Origin: Candidatus Palauibacter sp.
GTDB taxonomy: Bacteria > Gemmatimonadota > Gemmatimonadetes > Palauibacterales > Palauibacteraceae
Direction of reading: 5' to 3'
Assembly (NCBI RefSeq): GCF_965222475.1
Contig: NZ_CBDCUB010000006.1
Coordinates: forward strand, 129,893 to 193,892
DNA length: 64,000 nt
The notes under the pieces were generated by a model. That model was not told where the DNA came from. It worked only from the letters and a program-made list of their open reading frames with translations, and did not search any database. Below are positions 2,308-43,578 of the stretch, piece after piece; position 1 is the stretch's first letter, and every line of letters starts with the position of its first letter. Both the position numbers and the translations under genes were made by a program.

Positions 2308-3081
2308 TCAGCCGCACAGCACGCTGCCGCCGTTCACGTTGAGGATCTCGCCGGTGATGTGACGGGCGGCGTCGGAGAGGAGGAAGCAGATCGGCCCGGC
2401 GATATCCTCGGGCGTCGCGACGCGCCCGAGCGGGATCAGGGCCAGGGCGGCACGGCCCGCCTCGCCCCGGAGCGCGGGCGCGGACATGTCCGTGGCGACC
2501 CACCCCGGGGCGACGGCGTTCACGTTGATCGAGCGCGGTCCGAGTTCGGTCGCGATCGACTTGCAGAACGCATTGATGGCGCCCTTCGATGCCGCGTAGT
2601 GGCTGTGCTCCGCCTCCCCTCGCTGGGCCGCGGTCGAGGAGACGAGGACGATGCGGGAATCCGGCCTCATGCGGCACGCGGCCTCCCGCGTGCCGGCGTA
2701 GATCGACGTGAGGTTGATGTCGAGCATTCGGCGCCATTCATCCGAACCGAGCGCCTCGATCGGCCTCGGGTCCACGTTCCAGATGCCGGCGTTGCCGACG
2801 AAGCCGTCCAGGCCGCCGAACTCGGCGTCCGCACGCTCGAACAGCGCTCGACACTCCGCGGGTTCGGCGAGGTCGCCCCCCGCGCACCAGTGGGTCCCTT
2901 CCGGGGCCAGTTCTCGCGCCTCCTCGATCGCTCGCCGCGCTTCATCCGCGGCCCGGTGATAGGCGATCCCGACCGACGCGCCGGAGGCCGCGAGACCGCG
3001 CACCGTGGCACGGCCGATCCCGCGCGAGCCACCCGTCACGAGTACGCGCTTGCCCGCCAGCCCGGGCAGACCCCCGCTCAT
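2308..3081 (-). CDS. SDR family oxidoreductase (FabG-like)
   Basis: VTGGSRGIG, NAG, YAASK, NAVAPG; start set at MSGGLPG overlapping the upstream stop. Confidence 0.9.
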   Translation of the reverse strand: MSGGLPGLAGKRVLVTGGSRGIGRATVRGLAASGASVGIAYHRAADEARRAIEEARELAPEGTHWCAGGDLAEPAECRALFERADAEFGGLDGFVGNAGIWNVDPRPIEALGSDEWRRMLDINLTSIYAGTREAACRMRPDSRIVLVSSTAAQRGEAEHSHYAASKGAINAFCKSIATELGPRSINVNAVAPGWVATDMSAPALRGEAGRAALALIPLGRVATPEDIAGPICFLLSDAARHITGEILNVNGGSVLCG

Positions 3082-3455
3082 CCAGCGTCTTCCCGCGCCT
3101 CGGCGCGCGTGTGGAAGCGCTCGCCGATCACGCCGCGCGGACCGATCCGACGCGCGAGGCGGAGCGCCCGGGCCGCGCTCCCGCCGAGGCCCGGTTCGGC
3201 GGCGGCTTCGAGCGCGTACGTAAGGATCGCGTCGGCCGCCAGCAGGTTGATCGCACTCCCGCGATTCCCCTCCCCGTTGGCGACGGTCTCCAACGCGTCG
3301 AGGGCCACGGACACGAGGCCCTCCTCGTCGTCGCTCGGGACGCCAACCACCAGCGAGCGGATCGCGTCCGCCAGCTCCGGCGGCGCCTCCCGGAGCCGGG
3401 CCTGCAACCACGTCTCGAGTGTGATCGACGGGCCGGTCACGTGGGTCTCGTTCAT
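3078..3455 (-). CDS. Hypothetical protein
   Basis: Fills the gap between alaS and the SDR gene with tight coupling; LLAADAILTYALEAAAE helix. Confidence 0.7.
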   Translation of the reverse strand: MNETHVTGPSITLETWLQARLREAPPELADAIRSLVVGVPSDDEEGLVSVALDALETVANGEGNRGSAINLLAADAILTYALEAAAEPGLGGSAARALRLARRIGPRGVIGERFHTRAEAREDAG

Positions 3456-3459
3456 GCCA

Positions 3460-6111
<2,652 letters not shown>

Positions 6112-23700: not shown

Positions 23701-24483
23701 CCGCAGCGCCCGCTCCCCTTCGAGGCGCATCCGGTAGTGCGCGTCGTACGGAGGCGCCACCACGAGTTCGTCCCCCACCCGCTCCGCGAGCCCCCGCAGA
23801 CTCCGCTCCTCGGGGCTGAACAGGTCGTCCCCCTGGATCGTCTTGTAGTTGGCGAAGTAGGCGTCGAGGTCCTCGTCTCCGTCGACATCGGCCAGCGCCA
23901 CCGTGCTGCTCCCCCAGGCGCCCCCGAACCCCGCGTCACCTTCCTCGAAGACCCCGCTCCCGTCGTTCAGAAGGAGCGCGTTCGTCCCCCCGTGGACGGC
24001 CACCATCAGGTCCAGGTCTCCGTCTCCGTCCGCATCGGCCAGGACGGCGCCGCGCGACAGCCGATCCGCGAGCGCCGTCCCGGAGCGTCCGGTCACGTCC
24101 TCGAATCGCCACCCGCCGAGGTTGCGGTAGAGGACGTTCGGGCGGTCGAGCATGCAGAGGTATAGATCGACCCACCCGTCCCCGTCGACGTCGCCGAGCG
24201 CGACCCCGACCCCGTGGATGAGCGTCCGGTTCGCGAGCCTCGCCTCCCGGGAGACGGAGGGCGTCGCCGTGATCCCGGTCCGGTCCGCCGAGAGCCGCGT
24301 GAAGCCGCCGCCGGGCTCACCCTCGAACCGGAGCGCACGCTCGCGGGCGCCGTCCCCCTCGATCCAGTCGATCGAGACGGGCGGAGGAGAGTTCTCGCAG
24401 GCGCCGAAGAAGACGACCCCGATGGTCGGGGAGAGAAGGGCACGGAGGCCGGAGGGTCTCGCGGCCACGTCAGCAGTATCCAT
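20758..24483 (-). CDS. Large FG-GAP/VCBS repeat lipoprotein with two ASPIC/UnbV-like segments; 5' end abuts or is interrupted by IS110
   Basis: FFGAC lipobox-like signal; many DxDGDGxxD repeats; AIGARV...WPSG twice; start either GTG 24468 or IS-derived ATG 24483. Confidence 0.88.
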   Translation of the reverse strand: MDTADVAARPSGLRALLSPTIGVVFFGACENSPPPVSIDWIEGDGARERALRFEGEPGGGFTRLSADRTGITATPSVSREARLANRTLIHGVGVALGDVDGDGWVDLYLCMLDRPNVLYRNLGGWRFEDVTGRSGTALADRLSRGAVLADADGDGDLDLMVAVHGGTNALLLNDGSGVFEEGDAGFGGAWGSSTVALADVDGDEDLDAYFANYKTIQGDDLFSPEERSLRGLAERVGDELVVAPPYDAHYRMRLEGERALRFELADPDEFYLNDGSGRFEPVDLGGGAFRSADGEAVTEVPREWGLAARFFDADDDGDADLFVANDLGSRDGFWLNEGGIFVAASGLAFRTESTSSMGVDFSDIDGDGDTDFVTTEMLARDPVRRREQVSLGVAGWTPPGEHAARMSADRNTLHLNRGDGTWAETARAAGLDASEWTWGAMFLDVDLDGYEDLLITNGHGWDPLDGDTQEALRTGRIQVDWREELGVFPPLRLRNLAFRNRGDGTFGEMGRTWGYGVEPDVSHGIAAADFDRDGDRDVVITRLDEPPLVLRNDAGGVRVALRVRGEGGNTQAIGARVVLAAGGALPAQTRQVTSGGLYLSGSDPGLTFAMGERAAAEATIVWPSGRRRTLRVSANRAYEVAPPGDAAGGEPGMRRPAGAGGGPALFAGPEAVGRHGESAFDELARQPLVPLELSRSGPGVAWADIDADGDPDLLVGAGAGGRAQLAINEAGRLVDPVPFGAPAVGDHTSILALPTAARPVILAGVSSWEARSPADLDAIPPLARLDAGPPPAVPPSTHATGPLAAADVDGDGDLDLFVGARATPGAYPLPADSRLLLADGDAWTVDATAAATLRGIGLVSGAVFSDVDGDGDPDLALALEWGPVRLLENDGGRFTDVTDAWGPGAHTGRWNGIATGDFDGDGRSDLVVTAWGDNTGLGATADRPVGVVASDLDGNGLVDLIEVETGQDGVARPVRDYLTLGRALPFLRRAAPTFEAFARASVDDLLGSGRTGLYRPSAATLRHTVFLNRPGEPGNGGGFEARPLPARAQVAPAFGVAVADFDRDGHEDLFLAQNYLATPRGLPRHDAGRGVVLLGDGRGGFRALEVDESGVTVYGDARAAALADFDADGRWDLAVGQNGAETLIFRGRGGPPGLRVRLSAGGGSPGAIGARLRPRYRDGAEGPAREIQAGSGYWSLNGPVQVFGRAADIRAVTVRWADGTEEVFEVETGALEVKLRRGEGS

Positions 24484-24591
24484 GTTGCAAGGTTGCCGCG
24501 CGAGACGCGTCCACGGGCGAGTGTTGGCGCGGGGCTCGCCGGTCTCGGGCACGGAGGGCGTGCGGGCCGGCGCGCGGGGTTCGGGAGGGCA

Positions 24592-25545
24592 TCAGTTGGC
24601 GGCTCGGGGTTCCGGGGTCCGGAGACGGTCCTGCTGGAGGAGCGCGTTGGCGAGGACGACGAGCTTCCGCATAACGGCCGTGAGGGCGACCTTGGGCGGC
24701 TTGCCGGCGTCGAGCAGCGCCGCGTACTTCCGCTTGAGATCGGGATTCCAGCGGATCGCCGACAGGGCGGGCATGTAGAGGGTCCGGCGAACCGTGTGCC
24801 CGCCTCCCTGGATGAAGCTGCGTCCCCTCCAGGCGCCGGACTCCCGCGTCACCGGCGCCAGGCCGGCCAGGCTGGCGGCCCGGGGGCCGGTGAGCGTGCC
24901 CAGTTCGGGCATGTGGACGATCAGCCCCGCGGCGGTGACGCTCGAGATGCCGGGGATGGAGGTGAGTATCCGGGATCGCCGCCTCAGGGTCTCCTCGCTT
25001 TGAAGCAGCCGCTGGATCTCGTCGTCGACGCTCTTCAGCTGGCGCTCGATCTGCGCCAGCCGCTCCTTGTTGATCCGCTTCGCCAAGGCGTGGCGCAAGT
25101 GCTTGCCGCGGTTGAGGGGGGCGGTTCGATCCGCGACCAGCGCGTCGCGTACCGACTGCAGCTCGGCGAGGTCGCGCTGGCTCCGGGATTTCGCCGGGGT
25201 CGGGCGCAGGTCGTCGATCGCGGCCGCCATGACGGCCAGCGTCCGAGCGTCCACGGCGTCGATCTTCGCGCGCCGTCCCTGCGACCTGGCGAAGCACCTG
25301 ACCTGGTACGGATTGATCGCGTAGAGCGGAAGTCCGGCCTTCAGCAGCACCTCCTCGAAGTCGCGGTGCCAAGGCCCGGTGGGCTCGTAGGCGACGCGCC
25401 CGACCCCGGGGCCGACCCAGGCGATCAGTTTCCGGAACCCGGCCGCGTCGTTCGAGAAGCTGGCCGTCCTGCTCCCGGTGGGGGCGTGTTCGTGGGCGTC
25501 GAGCCGGGCTTTCGAGATGTCGACCCCGACGGTATGGTTGGTCAT
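24592..25545 (-). CDS. IS110 DEDD recombinase/transposase
   Basis: VGVDISK, YEPTG, KIDAVDA (D-E-D-D), SIPGIS, GLAPVTRESG (catalytic Ser), ALTAVMRKL. Confidence 0.96.
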   Translation of the reverse strand: MTNHTVGVDISKARLDAHEHAPTGSRTASFSNDAAGFRKLIAWVGPGVGRVAYEPTGPWHRDFEEVLLKAGLPLYAINPYQVRCFARSQGRRAKIDAVDARTLAVMAAAIDDLRPTPAKSRSQRDLAELQSVRDALVADRTAPLNRGKHLRHALAKRINKERLAQIERQLKSVDDEIQRLLQSEETLRRRSRILTSIPGISSVTAAGLIVHMPELGTLTGPRAASLAGLAPVTRESGAWRGRSFIQGGGHTVRRTLYMPALSAIRWNPDLKRKYAALLDAGKPPKVALTAVMRKLVVLANALLQQDRLRTPEPRAAN

Positions 25546-25554
25546 CTTCCCTTC

Positions 25555-25732
25555 TCCCGTGCTTGTCATGCGAGCCTCGATGCTCGTGTATCCATTCGGG
25601 ACGTGGGGAAGGACGGTGGCGGCCAAACTGCTAGACGGCCCCTGACGGCCAAGCCCGCAACGGTCCGACCACCGCCCCCCTTCGTCGCCCCCTCGGGGGG
25701 CGCGAAGGGCCGGGTCTTCCCTGTGCCCCGGA
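25555..25732 (-). ncRNA. Predicted IS110 bridge RNA (5' hairpin, target-binding loop, donor-binding loop)
   Basis: Donor guides ATGGATAC (25595-25588) and GACAAG (25567-25562) match the element ends; target guides GTTGCGGGCT (25661-25652) and TAGCAG (25633-25628) match the flanks. Confidence 0.85.
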
Positions 25733-25789
25733 CCTTCAAACTAACAGACAAGCCCGTGGCGGAGAGTCCGCCACCGGCCGCGGGGCTCG

Positions 25790-26473
25790 CTATTCGCTGT
25801 CTCCGCGGAAGACGGACCGCAACGCCTCGACCGCGTCGGCGGCCGCCTCCGCCGCCCGCGTGAACACCTCGGCAAGTTCCCGCTTGCCGGTGCCGGCGAG
25901 CGGAATGTCGAAGGTGAAGTGGACCGCGACCCCGGCGGGGCGGACGCTTTCCCGTGGATCGCTCCACCCGCCCCCGGGATCGAGGGCACCTTCGATGTGG
26001 ACCTCGACCGTGTCGCAGACCGCGCCCACGTCCTGCGCGACCCGGGTGAGCCGTGAGGCGAGCGCGTCATTCCTGGAGGCGTTCGACTCCCGCTCGTCGA
26101 GCCACAGGGACGGCGGCGCGACGTCGATGTGGACGCACCCGAGCATCACCTCGGCGGCGAGTTCCAGCGGGTCGCCGCCGGGCACGTCCGAGGACGGCTG
26201 CGCCAGGTAGGTGGCCAGGCCCTTGGTCCCGATGTTGACGAGCCCGAGGGCCATCTCGTCGACCGTCAGCTCCACCATGGCCGAGGGCGCGTGCAGCGTG
26301 TCGAGCGCGCCGGACTCGAGGATGTCGAGTTCCGACTGGTCGTACGCGAGCACCCGGAAGAACCACGAGAGCGGTTCCTGCCGGCCCTCGAAGAGGTCGC
26401 GCACGCCGAGCCCCCGGTCGCGCAGCGCGCTCAGGAGGAGCCCGCCCAGTTGGTGTCGCGTGAGTTCGGCCAC
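25790..26473 (-). CDS. Hypothetical protein
   Basis: 227 aa with coding-like composition and operonic position; no family recognised. Confidence 0.75.
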   Translation of the reverse strand: MAELTRHQLGGLLLSALRDRGLGVRDLFEGRQEPLSWFFRVLAYDQSELDILESGALDTLHAPSAMVELTVDEMALGLVNIGTKGLATYLAQPSSDVPGGDPLELAAEVMLGCVHIDVAPPSLWLDERESNASRNDALASRLTRVAQDVGAVCDTVEVHIEGALDPGGGWSDPRESVRPAGVAVHFTFDIPLAGTGKRELAEVFTRAAEAAADAVEALRSVFRGDSE

Positions 26474-43514: not shown

Positions 43515-43571
43515 CGGCCCGTGGCAAGAGCCCCGCTGCATTCGAGCGACGCAGGGTTTTGCCACGGGCCG
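43515..43571. repeat. Palindromic intergenic element (REP/MITE-like or terminator)
   Basis: CGGCCCGTGGCAA ... TTGCCACGGGCCG perfect 13-bp inverted repeat between convergent genes. Confidence 0.75.
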
Positions 43572-43578
43572 CTGAGGG

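Follow-up and report, generated by a model that had tools for sequence, protein, structure and literature searches.

The element described here lies on the minus strand of the window, a 64,000-nucleotide stretch of a Candidatus Palauibacter contig, at positions 24475-25752. It is a 1,276-bp element of the IS110 group with CT duplicated at both flanks, and the genome carries a single copy of this exact element. Read on the minus strand, the left junction is GCCACGGG-CT-TGTCTG and the right junction is CATGGATA-CT-GCTGAC, both as the initial annotation had read them. A sister genome of the same genus (G010) confirms these boundaries independently, since there the unoccupied site reads GCCACGGG-CT-GCTGAC and CT occurs once. 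Its flanks are 96% and 97% identical to those of the window, abut with an overlap of exactly 2 nt and read ...ctctccgccacgggCTgctgac... at the site. An empty site with one CT fixes both element boundaries exactly. The contigs of runs X1 and X2 cover both junctions. No contig of runs X1, X2, X5 or X6 spans an element-free site, and the circle junction was not found in them either; contigs drop rare forms, which limits both results. Three short "skips" in the run contigs were discarded, as their sides are 25-30 nt long and they derive from relatives. The features are listed below in minus-strand order.

25753..25775, minus: left target GCCACGGG, on the 3' arm of the hairpin GGTGGCGGA ctc TCCGCCAC (25775-25756)
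25751..25752, minus: left copy of the CT core (target-site duplication), from the junction sequence and the single CT of the G010 empty site
25546..25750, minus: left end (LE), 205 nt, encoding the putative bridge RNA, from the junctions, the fold and the homologue alignment
25738..25743, minus: TAGTTT, a weak -10-like hexamer, a consensus match only
25678..25731, minus: two 5' stem-loops (25731-25710 and 25709-25678), from the minimum free energy (MFE) fold; helix 1 is 98.7% paired over 15 homologues
25611..25677, minus: target-binding stem-loop (TBL), from sequence and homologue pairing
25661-25652, minus: left target guide (LTG) GTTGCGGGCT
25651-25636, minus: TBL hairpin GGCC/GGCC
25634-25628, minus: right target guide (RTG) CTAGCAG, with the handshake position U at 25627
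25555..25601, minus: donor-binding stem-loop (DBL), from sequence, MFE fold and homologue pairing
25595-25588, minus: left donor guide ATGGATAC
25586-25571, minus: DBL hairpin CGAGC/GCTCG
25567-25562, minus: right donor guide (RDG) GACAAG, with the handshake position C at 25561
24592..25545, minus: recombinase gene, 317 aa (D9, E54, D96, D99, S236)
24477..24591, minus: right end (RE), 115 nt, terminating in the left donor CATGGATA, with a -35-like TTGCAA at 24490-24485
24475..24476, minus: right copy of the CT core, from the junction sequence and the G010 empty site
24469..24474, minus: right target GCTGAC

The recombinase has the two domains expected of the group. Pfam PF01548, the N-terminal RuvC-like DEDD domain, matches at E 1.9e-22, and PF02371, the C-terminal Tnp domain, matches at E 4.7e-18. 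The protein reaches 197.3 bits with the NCBIfam model NF033542 ("IS110 family RNA-guided transposase"), whose cut-off is 140. Among solved structures IS621 (8wt6) is the best match with phmmer (E 8.6e-33, 117 bits, residues 4-304), followed by ISCro4 (9t56, E 7.9e-32) over the same span. D9, E54, D96 and D99 align opposite the acidic catalytic residues of IS621, which are D11, E60, D102 and D105 (PMC11208158). S236-G237 aligns with S241-G242 of IS621, so the catalytic serine is present. The gene has a dN/dS of 0.22-0.43 against 11 homologues, and an in-frame ATG lies 8 codons upstream of its start (25569), inside the donor loop. The initial annotation called this an intact 317-aa recombinase with DEDD plus Ser, and the sequence comparisons support that description.

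The left end is longer than the right end (205 against 115 nt), a relation that section 12 of PMC11208160 uses as a criterion. It folds into 5' hairpins followed by two stem-loops with internal loops, with an MFE of -100.8 kcal/mol (z -2.7); none of 200 shuffles folds as well. An explicit bridge-RNA structure was scored on 15 distinct left ends. It pairs 86.9% of the cells, against 33-55% when the partners are slid. Over the same left ends the TBL base is paired at 98.7%, the TBL hairpin at 96%, the DBL base at 97.3% and the DBL hairpin at 100%, and 8 pairs are altered on both sides in a compensatory manner. Helices 2 and 3 of the 5' hairpins are only 41-74% paired and align poorly. We dropped an RNAalifold consensus in which the RDG was paired with the LE tip TGTC and the base of the donor loop was broken. 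A search of 24000-26200 against Rfam at E up to 1 gave no family, which is uninformative as Rfam apparently has no matching model; at the same threshold five REP or scar loci gave none.

The second, or donor, loop matches the element's own RE-CT-LE junction (ATGGATA-CT-TGTC). ATGGATAC is the RE end plus C, and reverse-complementing CT plus TGTC gives GACAAG. All 15 aligned left ends carry this loop almost unchanged, the one difference being a G-to-C change in the OZ244625 copies. The first, or target, loop is directed at the flanking DNA. Its LTG is identical to the target at 7 of 10 positions, and the three differences set guide U, U and G opposite top-strand C, C and A, so all three are wobble-compatible. 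The initial annotation had claimed both loops from the letters alone: the donor loop with its hairpin and GACAAG (found at 25595-25562), and the target loop with its GGCC/GGCC hairpin, TAGCAG and three wobble-compatible differences. Both are there as claimed, and the fold it proposed as a check returned the two internal-loop stem-loops. Section 11 of PMC11208158 describes a handshake rule by which pairing takes place between the handshake guides and position 7 of the non-cognate DNA. Here a C follows the RDG on its 3' side and would face target position 7, a G in 37 of 37 sites; a U follows the RTG in the same way and would face donor position 7, an A.

Further evidence comes from the homologues. 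The target loop varies among them and follows the flanking target on both strands. Over 37 distinct sites, which are not independent because many of them lie in the same repeat families, and 11 guide classes, cognate pairs match at 9.30 of 11 non-core positions and non-cognate pairs at 4.39. When the classes are permuted, none of 20,000 permutations reaches the observed match sum. This is the guide-target covariation among homologous left ends that the initial annotation had named among the checks of its reading. Six further elements with four more guide families have guides that match their own flanks at the right target in 5 of 6 cases. There are exceptions: both guides of L056 and L057 mismatch their flanks, and L013 mismatches at the right target. 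L005, L006, L008, L013, L015 and L086 were parsed by eye only and stand outside the 37-site count. The guide counts leave out L064-L069 (6 of 49 loci), which match only in truncated form or distantly and lack anything resembling a bridge RNA upstream, and the fragments L007, L009-L012, L014 and L016-L020. Nine OX639991 copies with the same flank lie inside a larger rve-type repeat and were for that reason counted as two sites. A protein-based metagenome scan gave 6 loci; among L085-L088, which were parsed, L088 lacks a donor-loop match, and L089 and L090 are outside the parsed set. The window's exact pair of loops occurs in no other element examined, and an exact search for its target loop in metagenome contigs gave 0 matches.

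Could such matches arise by chance in GC-rich sequence? When the left end was shuffled 200,000 times by mononucleotide, the perfectly matched part of the target-guide pattern by itself turned up 978 times, the donor-guide pattern 2 times and the two together never. The same loop register also holds in 45 parsed homologues, and the junctions are confirmed by the empty site. The matches exceed chance. We put the probability of a chance origin close to nil, and together with the covariation these results refute it.

It could also be argued that the left end is a mere 5' untranslated region or a set of subterminal protein-binding repeats, that the recombinase reads DNA directly and that the loop matches are by-products. 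Taken alone, the donor-loop matches could be read as subterminal repeats of the ends. The first loop does not fit this argument. In at least seven specificity families, whose protein and scaffold are 65-82% identical, it changes along with the host flanks, and repeats of the element ends at the DNA level cannot explain a loop that covaries with host flanks. The helices flanking the loops are kept by compensatory changes, and section 7 of PMC11208160 reports that the IS621 RNA is necessary and sufficient in vitro. We consider this explanation very improbable.

We are therefore confident that the window holds at 24475-25752 a complete IS621-type insertion sequence of the IS110 group, with a left end that encodes a bridge RNA of roughly 180-200 nt, at a guide-matched site flanked by duplicated CT. 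Apart from the weak junction promoter described below, each sequence feature of such an element that was examined is present, and this supports the assignment. The initial annotation had recognized the IS621-type architecture, and the domains, catalytic residues, CT duplication, left-end RNA and loop behavior all support it.

The target lies in a REP-like hairpin just 3' of the stop codon of an upstream 227-aa ORF, with the insertion target (CACGGG-CT-GCT) on its 3' arm. Rebuilt in silico, the empty site has a fold of -23.7 kcal/mol whose stem contains the left target. On the other side of the element an FG-GAP/ASPIC lipoprotein gene has its GTG start at 24468, directly after the right target.

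If the element works as IS621 does, it would excise as a circle, and a promoter formed at the circle junction would then drive the RNA and the recombinase. Two recombinase dimers would bind the pair of RNA loops, and each loop would pair with both strands of its DNA around the CT core. S236 together with D9, E54, D96 and D99 would cut and exchange the top strands and then the bottom strands, and this exchange would insert the element and duplicate CT. The circular RE-CT-LE junction reads TTGCAA-17 nt-TAGTTT, which matches the sigma-70 consensus at 7 of 12 positions and falls below the scan criteria, although that consensus may not be the one used by the host phylum. In copies from the Bryobacterales and group C and in L060 the junction -35 reads TTGACA; the -10 is weak throughout. 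A scan of the integrated copy gave no sigma-70-like promoter.

The remaining question is what the three LTG differences mean. We believe the simplest reading is that wobble or distal mismatch is tolerated here, and it is plausible that, as the initial annotation inferred, the target loop tolerates wobble pairs. Wobble tolerance between the LTG and the left target (LT) is already reported for ISPpu10 and IS621 in a preprint (10.64898/2026.03.19.712850). However, the Bryobacterales-type guide (GTCACGGGCT/TTTAGCAG) matches the site at 10 of 11 non-core positions and the element's own guide matches it at only 7 of 11, so drift after insertion and insertion guided in trans are live alternatives. 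Either the guide of this same element has drifted by transitions, leaving a stranded single copy with a decaying target loop, or its insertion was directed by the bridge RNA of a sibling whose donor loop is identical and whose target loop matches better. The window guide is two transitions away from the Bryobacterales guide, and the element is single-copy in its genome. The donor loop and element ends are common to all subfamilies, which makes action in trans mechanistically possible, and a bridge RNA supplied in trans works for IS621 (PMC11208160). A REP copy in the same genome carries a 10-nt left-end scar of Bryobacterales type (CACGGGCT followed by TGTCTATTAC).

Against both alternatives, L060 is an independent insertion in another phylum that also has U at guide position -8 and also sits in GCCACGGG-CT-GCTG. 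Natural deviations occur at -8 in 11 of 37 sites and at -7 in 5 of 37, and wobble-type deviations stand to others as 7:4 and 3:2 at these positions. The distal LTG positions of ISPpu10 tolerate mismatch according to the same preprint, the ORF and all RNA helices of the window element are intact, and no full sibling with a Bryobacterales-type guide is present in this genome. We regard drift or trans guidance as a serious possibility that we nonetheless doubt, and we prefer tolerated wobble or mismatch.

A more speculative idea is that the window target loop is a natural intermediate in the retargeting of the guide, which walks between repeat families, with cross-mobilization possible. The left guides, carried on a near-constant scaffold, can be ordered in single steps: TTTCAGG, TTTCGGG (L060), TTGCGGG (window) and TCACGGG (Bryobacterales). 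The TTTCAGG guide targets TTCAGG, and the other three all sit in CCACGGG-CT-GCT REP sites. We think this idea is unlikely. If it were true, G:T and U:G wobble, the target hairpin and the fixed handshake G7 would keep the element mobile while its guide walked by single transitions, and several subfamilies with identical donor loops in one cell could cross-mobilize through their bridge RNAs.

The window element leaves the picture of how such elements work unchanged. What it would add, judging from its sequence, is a bridge recombinase that is cleanly delimited, looks intact and comes from a little-sampled, GC-rich lineage of soil or marine habitats. The known empty site and the readable guides come with at least seven natural target-loop variants, all on one scaffold whose donor loop stays the same. 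This is a natural reprogramming series for position-specific tolerance of mismatch and wobble outside the IS621 of E. coli. The same series suits the study of the target hairpin's role and of trans-mobilization between sibling elements.

How does the element compare with those already described? Its closest relatives are sister elements in Longimicrobiales, Bryobacterales, Thermoanaerobaculia and other MAGs (L002, L005-L008, L013, L015, L021-L063 and L086), whose recombinases are 65-82% identical. They share its ends (TGTC... and ...ATGGATA), donor loop and scaffold; their target loops differ and fall into at least seven specificities. Predicted bridge RNAs are reportedly tabulated in the supplement of Durrant et al., and this clade could already be among them. 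The architecture matches the layout that Durrant et al. 2024 give in PMC11208160 (sections 6, 7 and 12): a 5' stem-loop, a variable first loop, a conserved second loop and an LE longer than the RE. With IS621 of E. coli (PMC11208160, PMC11208158, PDB 8WT6-8WT9) it shares the two-domain recombinase with DEDD plus Ser, the CT core, an RNA encoded in the left end with the target loop first and the donor loop second, the position 7 handshake rule, a REP-type target and the longer LE. It differs from IS621 in several ways. The recombinase is only distantly related, as the phmmer match above indicates; the RNA has two 5' hairpins where IS621 has one; of the core, only the C is covered by the left donor guide (ATGGATAC and then A); pairing of the right target guide extends over about 5-7 nt; and the host belongs to a GC-rich Gemmatimonadota lineage. 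ISCro4 (PDB 9t56) is a distant relative known by the sequence match of its transposase alone. ISPpu10 of Pseudomonas putida (10.64898/2026.03.19.712850) also targets a REP in which the 3' arm of a 5' stem-loop is formed by the left target. Its LTG-LT interface contains a natural wobble pair and tolerates distal LTG mismatch, as that of the window element may do. The host and sequence family of ISPpu10 are different, and the likeness is one of description, with the role of the hairpin here inferred from geometry only. The window element is a genuine, fairly ordinary additional member of the system described in 2024.

Judged by its sequence, the element is a genuine and intact IS110-group bridge-RNA element, and the initial annotation was correct to decode it as one; protein domains, junctions, loops and covariation all agree. 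The junctions, the open reading frame and the loop features were all found on the minus strand where they had been placed:

Features of the element (window coordinates)
CT at 25752-25751, minus strand: left junction GCCACGGG-CT-TGTCTG, read from the sequence
25750-25546, minus strand: non-coding left end, 205 nt
25661-25652, minus strand: left target guide GTTGCGGGCT, compared with the site GCCACGGGCT
25634-25628, minus strand: right target guide CTAGCAG, reverse complement of CTGCTAG; the site is CTGCTGA
25595-25588, minus strand: left donor guide ATGGATAC, equal to the right end's last seven bases plus the core C
25567-25562, minus strand: right donor guide GACAAG, reverse complement of CT plus TGTC
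25545-24592, minus strand: recombinase ORF, 317 aa
24591-24477, minus strand: right end, 115 nt
CT at 24476-24475, minus strand: right junction CATGGATA-CT-GCTGAC, read from the sequence

The boundaries are settled by an empty site. A 3.6-kb stretch around the element was searched against 40 relatives, and in the same-genus sister genome G010 query positions 1-1150 and 2425-3600 match adjoining pieces at 97% and 96% identity with a 2-nt overlap. That site reads ...gaatagcgagccccgcggccggcggcggactctccgccacgggCTgctgacttggcc... with a single CT, therefore the element is 25750-24477 plus one duplicated CT, which bears out the boundaries first proposed. Presence in one genome and absence in another so close means insertion, or precise excision, since the two diverged. 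Among the source-community contigs searched, none bridges the flanks across the element in the empty form, and none shows a circle junction. The element adjoins an FG-GAP/ASPIC lipoprotein gene in the same orientation (1,200 aa; signal peptide ...VVFFGAC), whose GTG start lies 6 nt downstream (window 24454-24476), and cuts it off from its former upstream sequence; in G010 this gene starts with TTG.

The recombinase carries the Pfam domains DEDD_Tnp_IS110 (residues 6-146) and Transposase_20 (residues 192-274) and scores 197.3 bits against NCBIfam NF033542, 'IS110 family RNA-guided transposase', where the cut-off is 140. Its only two solved-structure matches are the transposases of IS621 (8wt6, E 8.6e-33) and ISCro4 (9t56, E 7.9e-32). 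Residues D9, E54, D96, D99 and S236-G237 align with D11, E60, D102, D105 and S241, the composite active site of IS621 as given by Hiraizumi et al. (PMC11208158). Values of dN/dS against 11 homologues, 0.22-0.43, show purifying selection on the gene family. An alternative in-frame ATG lies eight codons upstream at 25569, within the donor loop; the IS621 alignment and purine-rich sequence just ahead of the second ATG both favour the start of the 317-aa form.

The predicted fold of the left end has a free energy of -100.8 kcal/mol (z -2.7), equalled by none of 200 shuffles, and shows the donor-binding stem-loop as a clean internal loop. No Rfam model matched the left end in a scan of window 24000-26200. 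We aligned 15 distinct left ends and, because RNAalifold's own consensus was partly odd, wrote an explicit bridge-RNA structure for counting pairs. Standard pairs fill 86.9% of its 718 cells; with partners displaced by 1-3 columns the figure drops to 33-55%. Folding and alignment with homologous left ends had been proposed as a check, and the helices flanking the loops are indeed kept, at 96.0-100% paired: 98.7% for the target-loop base, 96.0% for its hairpin, 97.3% for the donor-loop base and 100% for its hairpin. Eight pairs show two-sided changes, as in the donor-loop base where 13 sequences have U-A and the window and its own-genome sibling L002 have C-G. The inner 5' hairpin aligns poorly, with pairing of 41-74%. 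A weak candidate promoter would span the RE-LE junction (TTGCAA, 17 nt, TAGTTT), matching 7 of 12 positions of a sigma-70-type consensus that may not be the host's; in several sister subfamilies its -35 is TTGACA, and a weak -10 is seen everywhere.

Shuffling the left end 200,000 times produced the donor pattern in 2 cases and the perfectly matched stretch of the target pattern in 978; no shuffle contained both. Hiraizumi et al. (PMC11208158, section 11) describe a handshake rule, by which, once the strands have been exchanged, the two nucleotides that follow each loop's core-pairing AG on its 3' side base-pair with positions 7-6 of the other DNA. By inspection the rule appears to hold here: the right donor guide is followed by C, which stands opposite a G at target position 7 in 37 of 37 sites, and the right target guide by U, which stands opposite an A at donor position 7.

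Within its own genome the element has two siblings, 81-83% identical to it in DNA: the complete L002 with a different target loop and the 5'-truncated L003. L003 (C1:798231-799244) is without a target loop, has a one-base frame change at its start codon, and is followed by a tandem pair of TTCAGG-CT-CAC target motifs, the second unoccupied; L002 directly adjoins another IS110-family transposase gene, which differs from its own (C8:284425-285423). A scan of species-representative genomes gave 49 loci, most of them from MAGs of Longimicrobiales, Bryobacterales, Thermoanaerobaculia and other Acidobacteriota or Gemmatimonadota, with 65-82% protein identity; the clade thus extends over more than one phylum. 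Parsing 45 elements (the window, L002 and L021-L063) yielded 37 distinct sites and 11 guide classes, with nine same-flank copies in OX639991 entered as two sites. Ends and donor loop are identical throughout, save that the OZ244625 copies have C in place of G in their left donor guide, while the target loop is variable and tracks the flanks. Cognate guide-site pairs match at 9.30 of 11 non-core positions versus 4.39 of 11 for non-cognate pairs, over 37 sites of which many lie within repeat families and are not independent. With guide classes permuted over these same non-independent site sets, none of 20,000 permutations reached the observed cognate sum. The guide-target covariation sought among homologues is thus present. 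Six further elements in four more guide families (L005, L006, L008, L013, L015, L086) also match their own flanks, except L013 (G006), which fits on the left side only and fails at the right target.

Some of these loci have histories of their own. The OZ244625 copies (L048-L053, L059) carry ATGCATAC in the left donor guide and right ends of ATGGATA, a C-C mismatch that was compatible with at least seven insertions at different sites. The TTCAGG-CT-CACTT-type elements of OX639991 (L024-L034, L063) lie inside a larger rve-type repeat, some 55 nt from one of its ends, with the integrase encoded on the opposite strand; nine to ten copies share flanks because of this nesting. L056 and L057 (OZ242253) represent one event within a larger repeat, and their guides misfit their own flanks, GGGGTCG-CT-CTCGT, for which the L054/55/58 subfamily has the fitting guide. 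These misfits and that of L013 might stem from guidance in trans, from a loop replaced after insertion or from a rearrangement. On contigs from the metagenome runs X1 and X2, relatives match the scaffold and diverge exactly at the target loop (window 25629), where they carry other guides; more than one target-loop variant is thus present within these communities.

The left target lies on the 3' arm of a hairpin, GGTGGCGGA-ctc-TCCGCCAC, which the upstream ORF's stop codon immediately precedes; an empty site rebuilt in silico has a predicted folding energy of -23.7 kcal/mol. The genome has 21 CACGGGCTGCT sites, many of them located at the right arm of a palindromic, REP-like repeat some 110 nt long (GCAGCCCGTGGCAAAA ... 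CTTTTGCCACGGGCTGC) with 26 BLAST matches in the genome and no match in Rfam. Copies lie at window 43515-43575 (minus) and in about 25 other places, for example C1:751164-751300 and C8:674281-674353, frequently just 3' of stop codons. The window copy has CC at the core, not CT, and so should not be a target. In the copy at C8:581465-581520 (L073:266-330) the right arm breaks off after GCCACGGG-CT. Next comes TGTCTATTAC, which equals the opening 10 nt of the Bryobacterales-type left end, and then unrelated sequence and a prepilin-like gene; this copy looks like the scar of a lost sibling element.

The left target guide differs from its site at three distal positions (-9, -8 and -7, counted from the core), where the guide has U/U/G and the top strand C/C/A; each of the three could thus pair with the bottom strand as U:G or G:T, as the initial annotation claimed. 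Since the target reads identically in the empty site of G010, the difference arose in the guide and not by mutation of the flank. Among the 37 natural sites, position -9 matches in 3 and is uninformative in this clade. Position -8 matches in 26, with 7 wobble-type deviations and 4 other mismatches, and position -7 in 32, with 3 and 2. On these sequences the window guide looks like a wobble-linked intermediate in a series of target-loop variants. The differences may, however, reflect guide drift after insertion, or an insertion guided in trans by a sibling's RNA: the site matches the Bryobacterales guide at 10 of 11 positions versus 7 of 11 for its own, and the 10-nt scar is of that same type. 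We keep both as alternatives because of this better fit and the scar. Against them stands L060, an independent insertion in another phylum, which carries U at -8, is truly mismatched at -7 and yet sits in the same GCCACGGG-CT-GCTG motif. Tolerance at distal left-guide positions has already been reported, with a natural U:G wobble at the left target guide-target interface of ISPpu10 and a G:T wobble at that of IS621 (preprint 10.64898/2026.03.19.712850).

What this element adds is modest: its empty site is known exactly, its target lies on a REP hairpin, and a single scaffold comes with a natural series of different target loops. Both the targeting of REPs and a stem-loop in the target 5' of the core are known from IS621 and ISPpu10 (PMC11208160; preprint 10.64898/2026.03.19.712850, section 7). 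Durrant et al. [quoted passage not shown] That layout is seen in our aligned left ends, with the difference that there are two 5' hairpins here.
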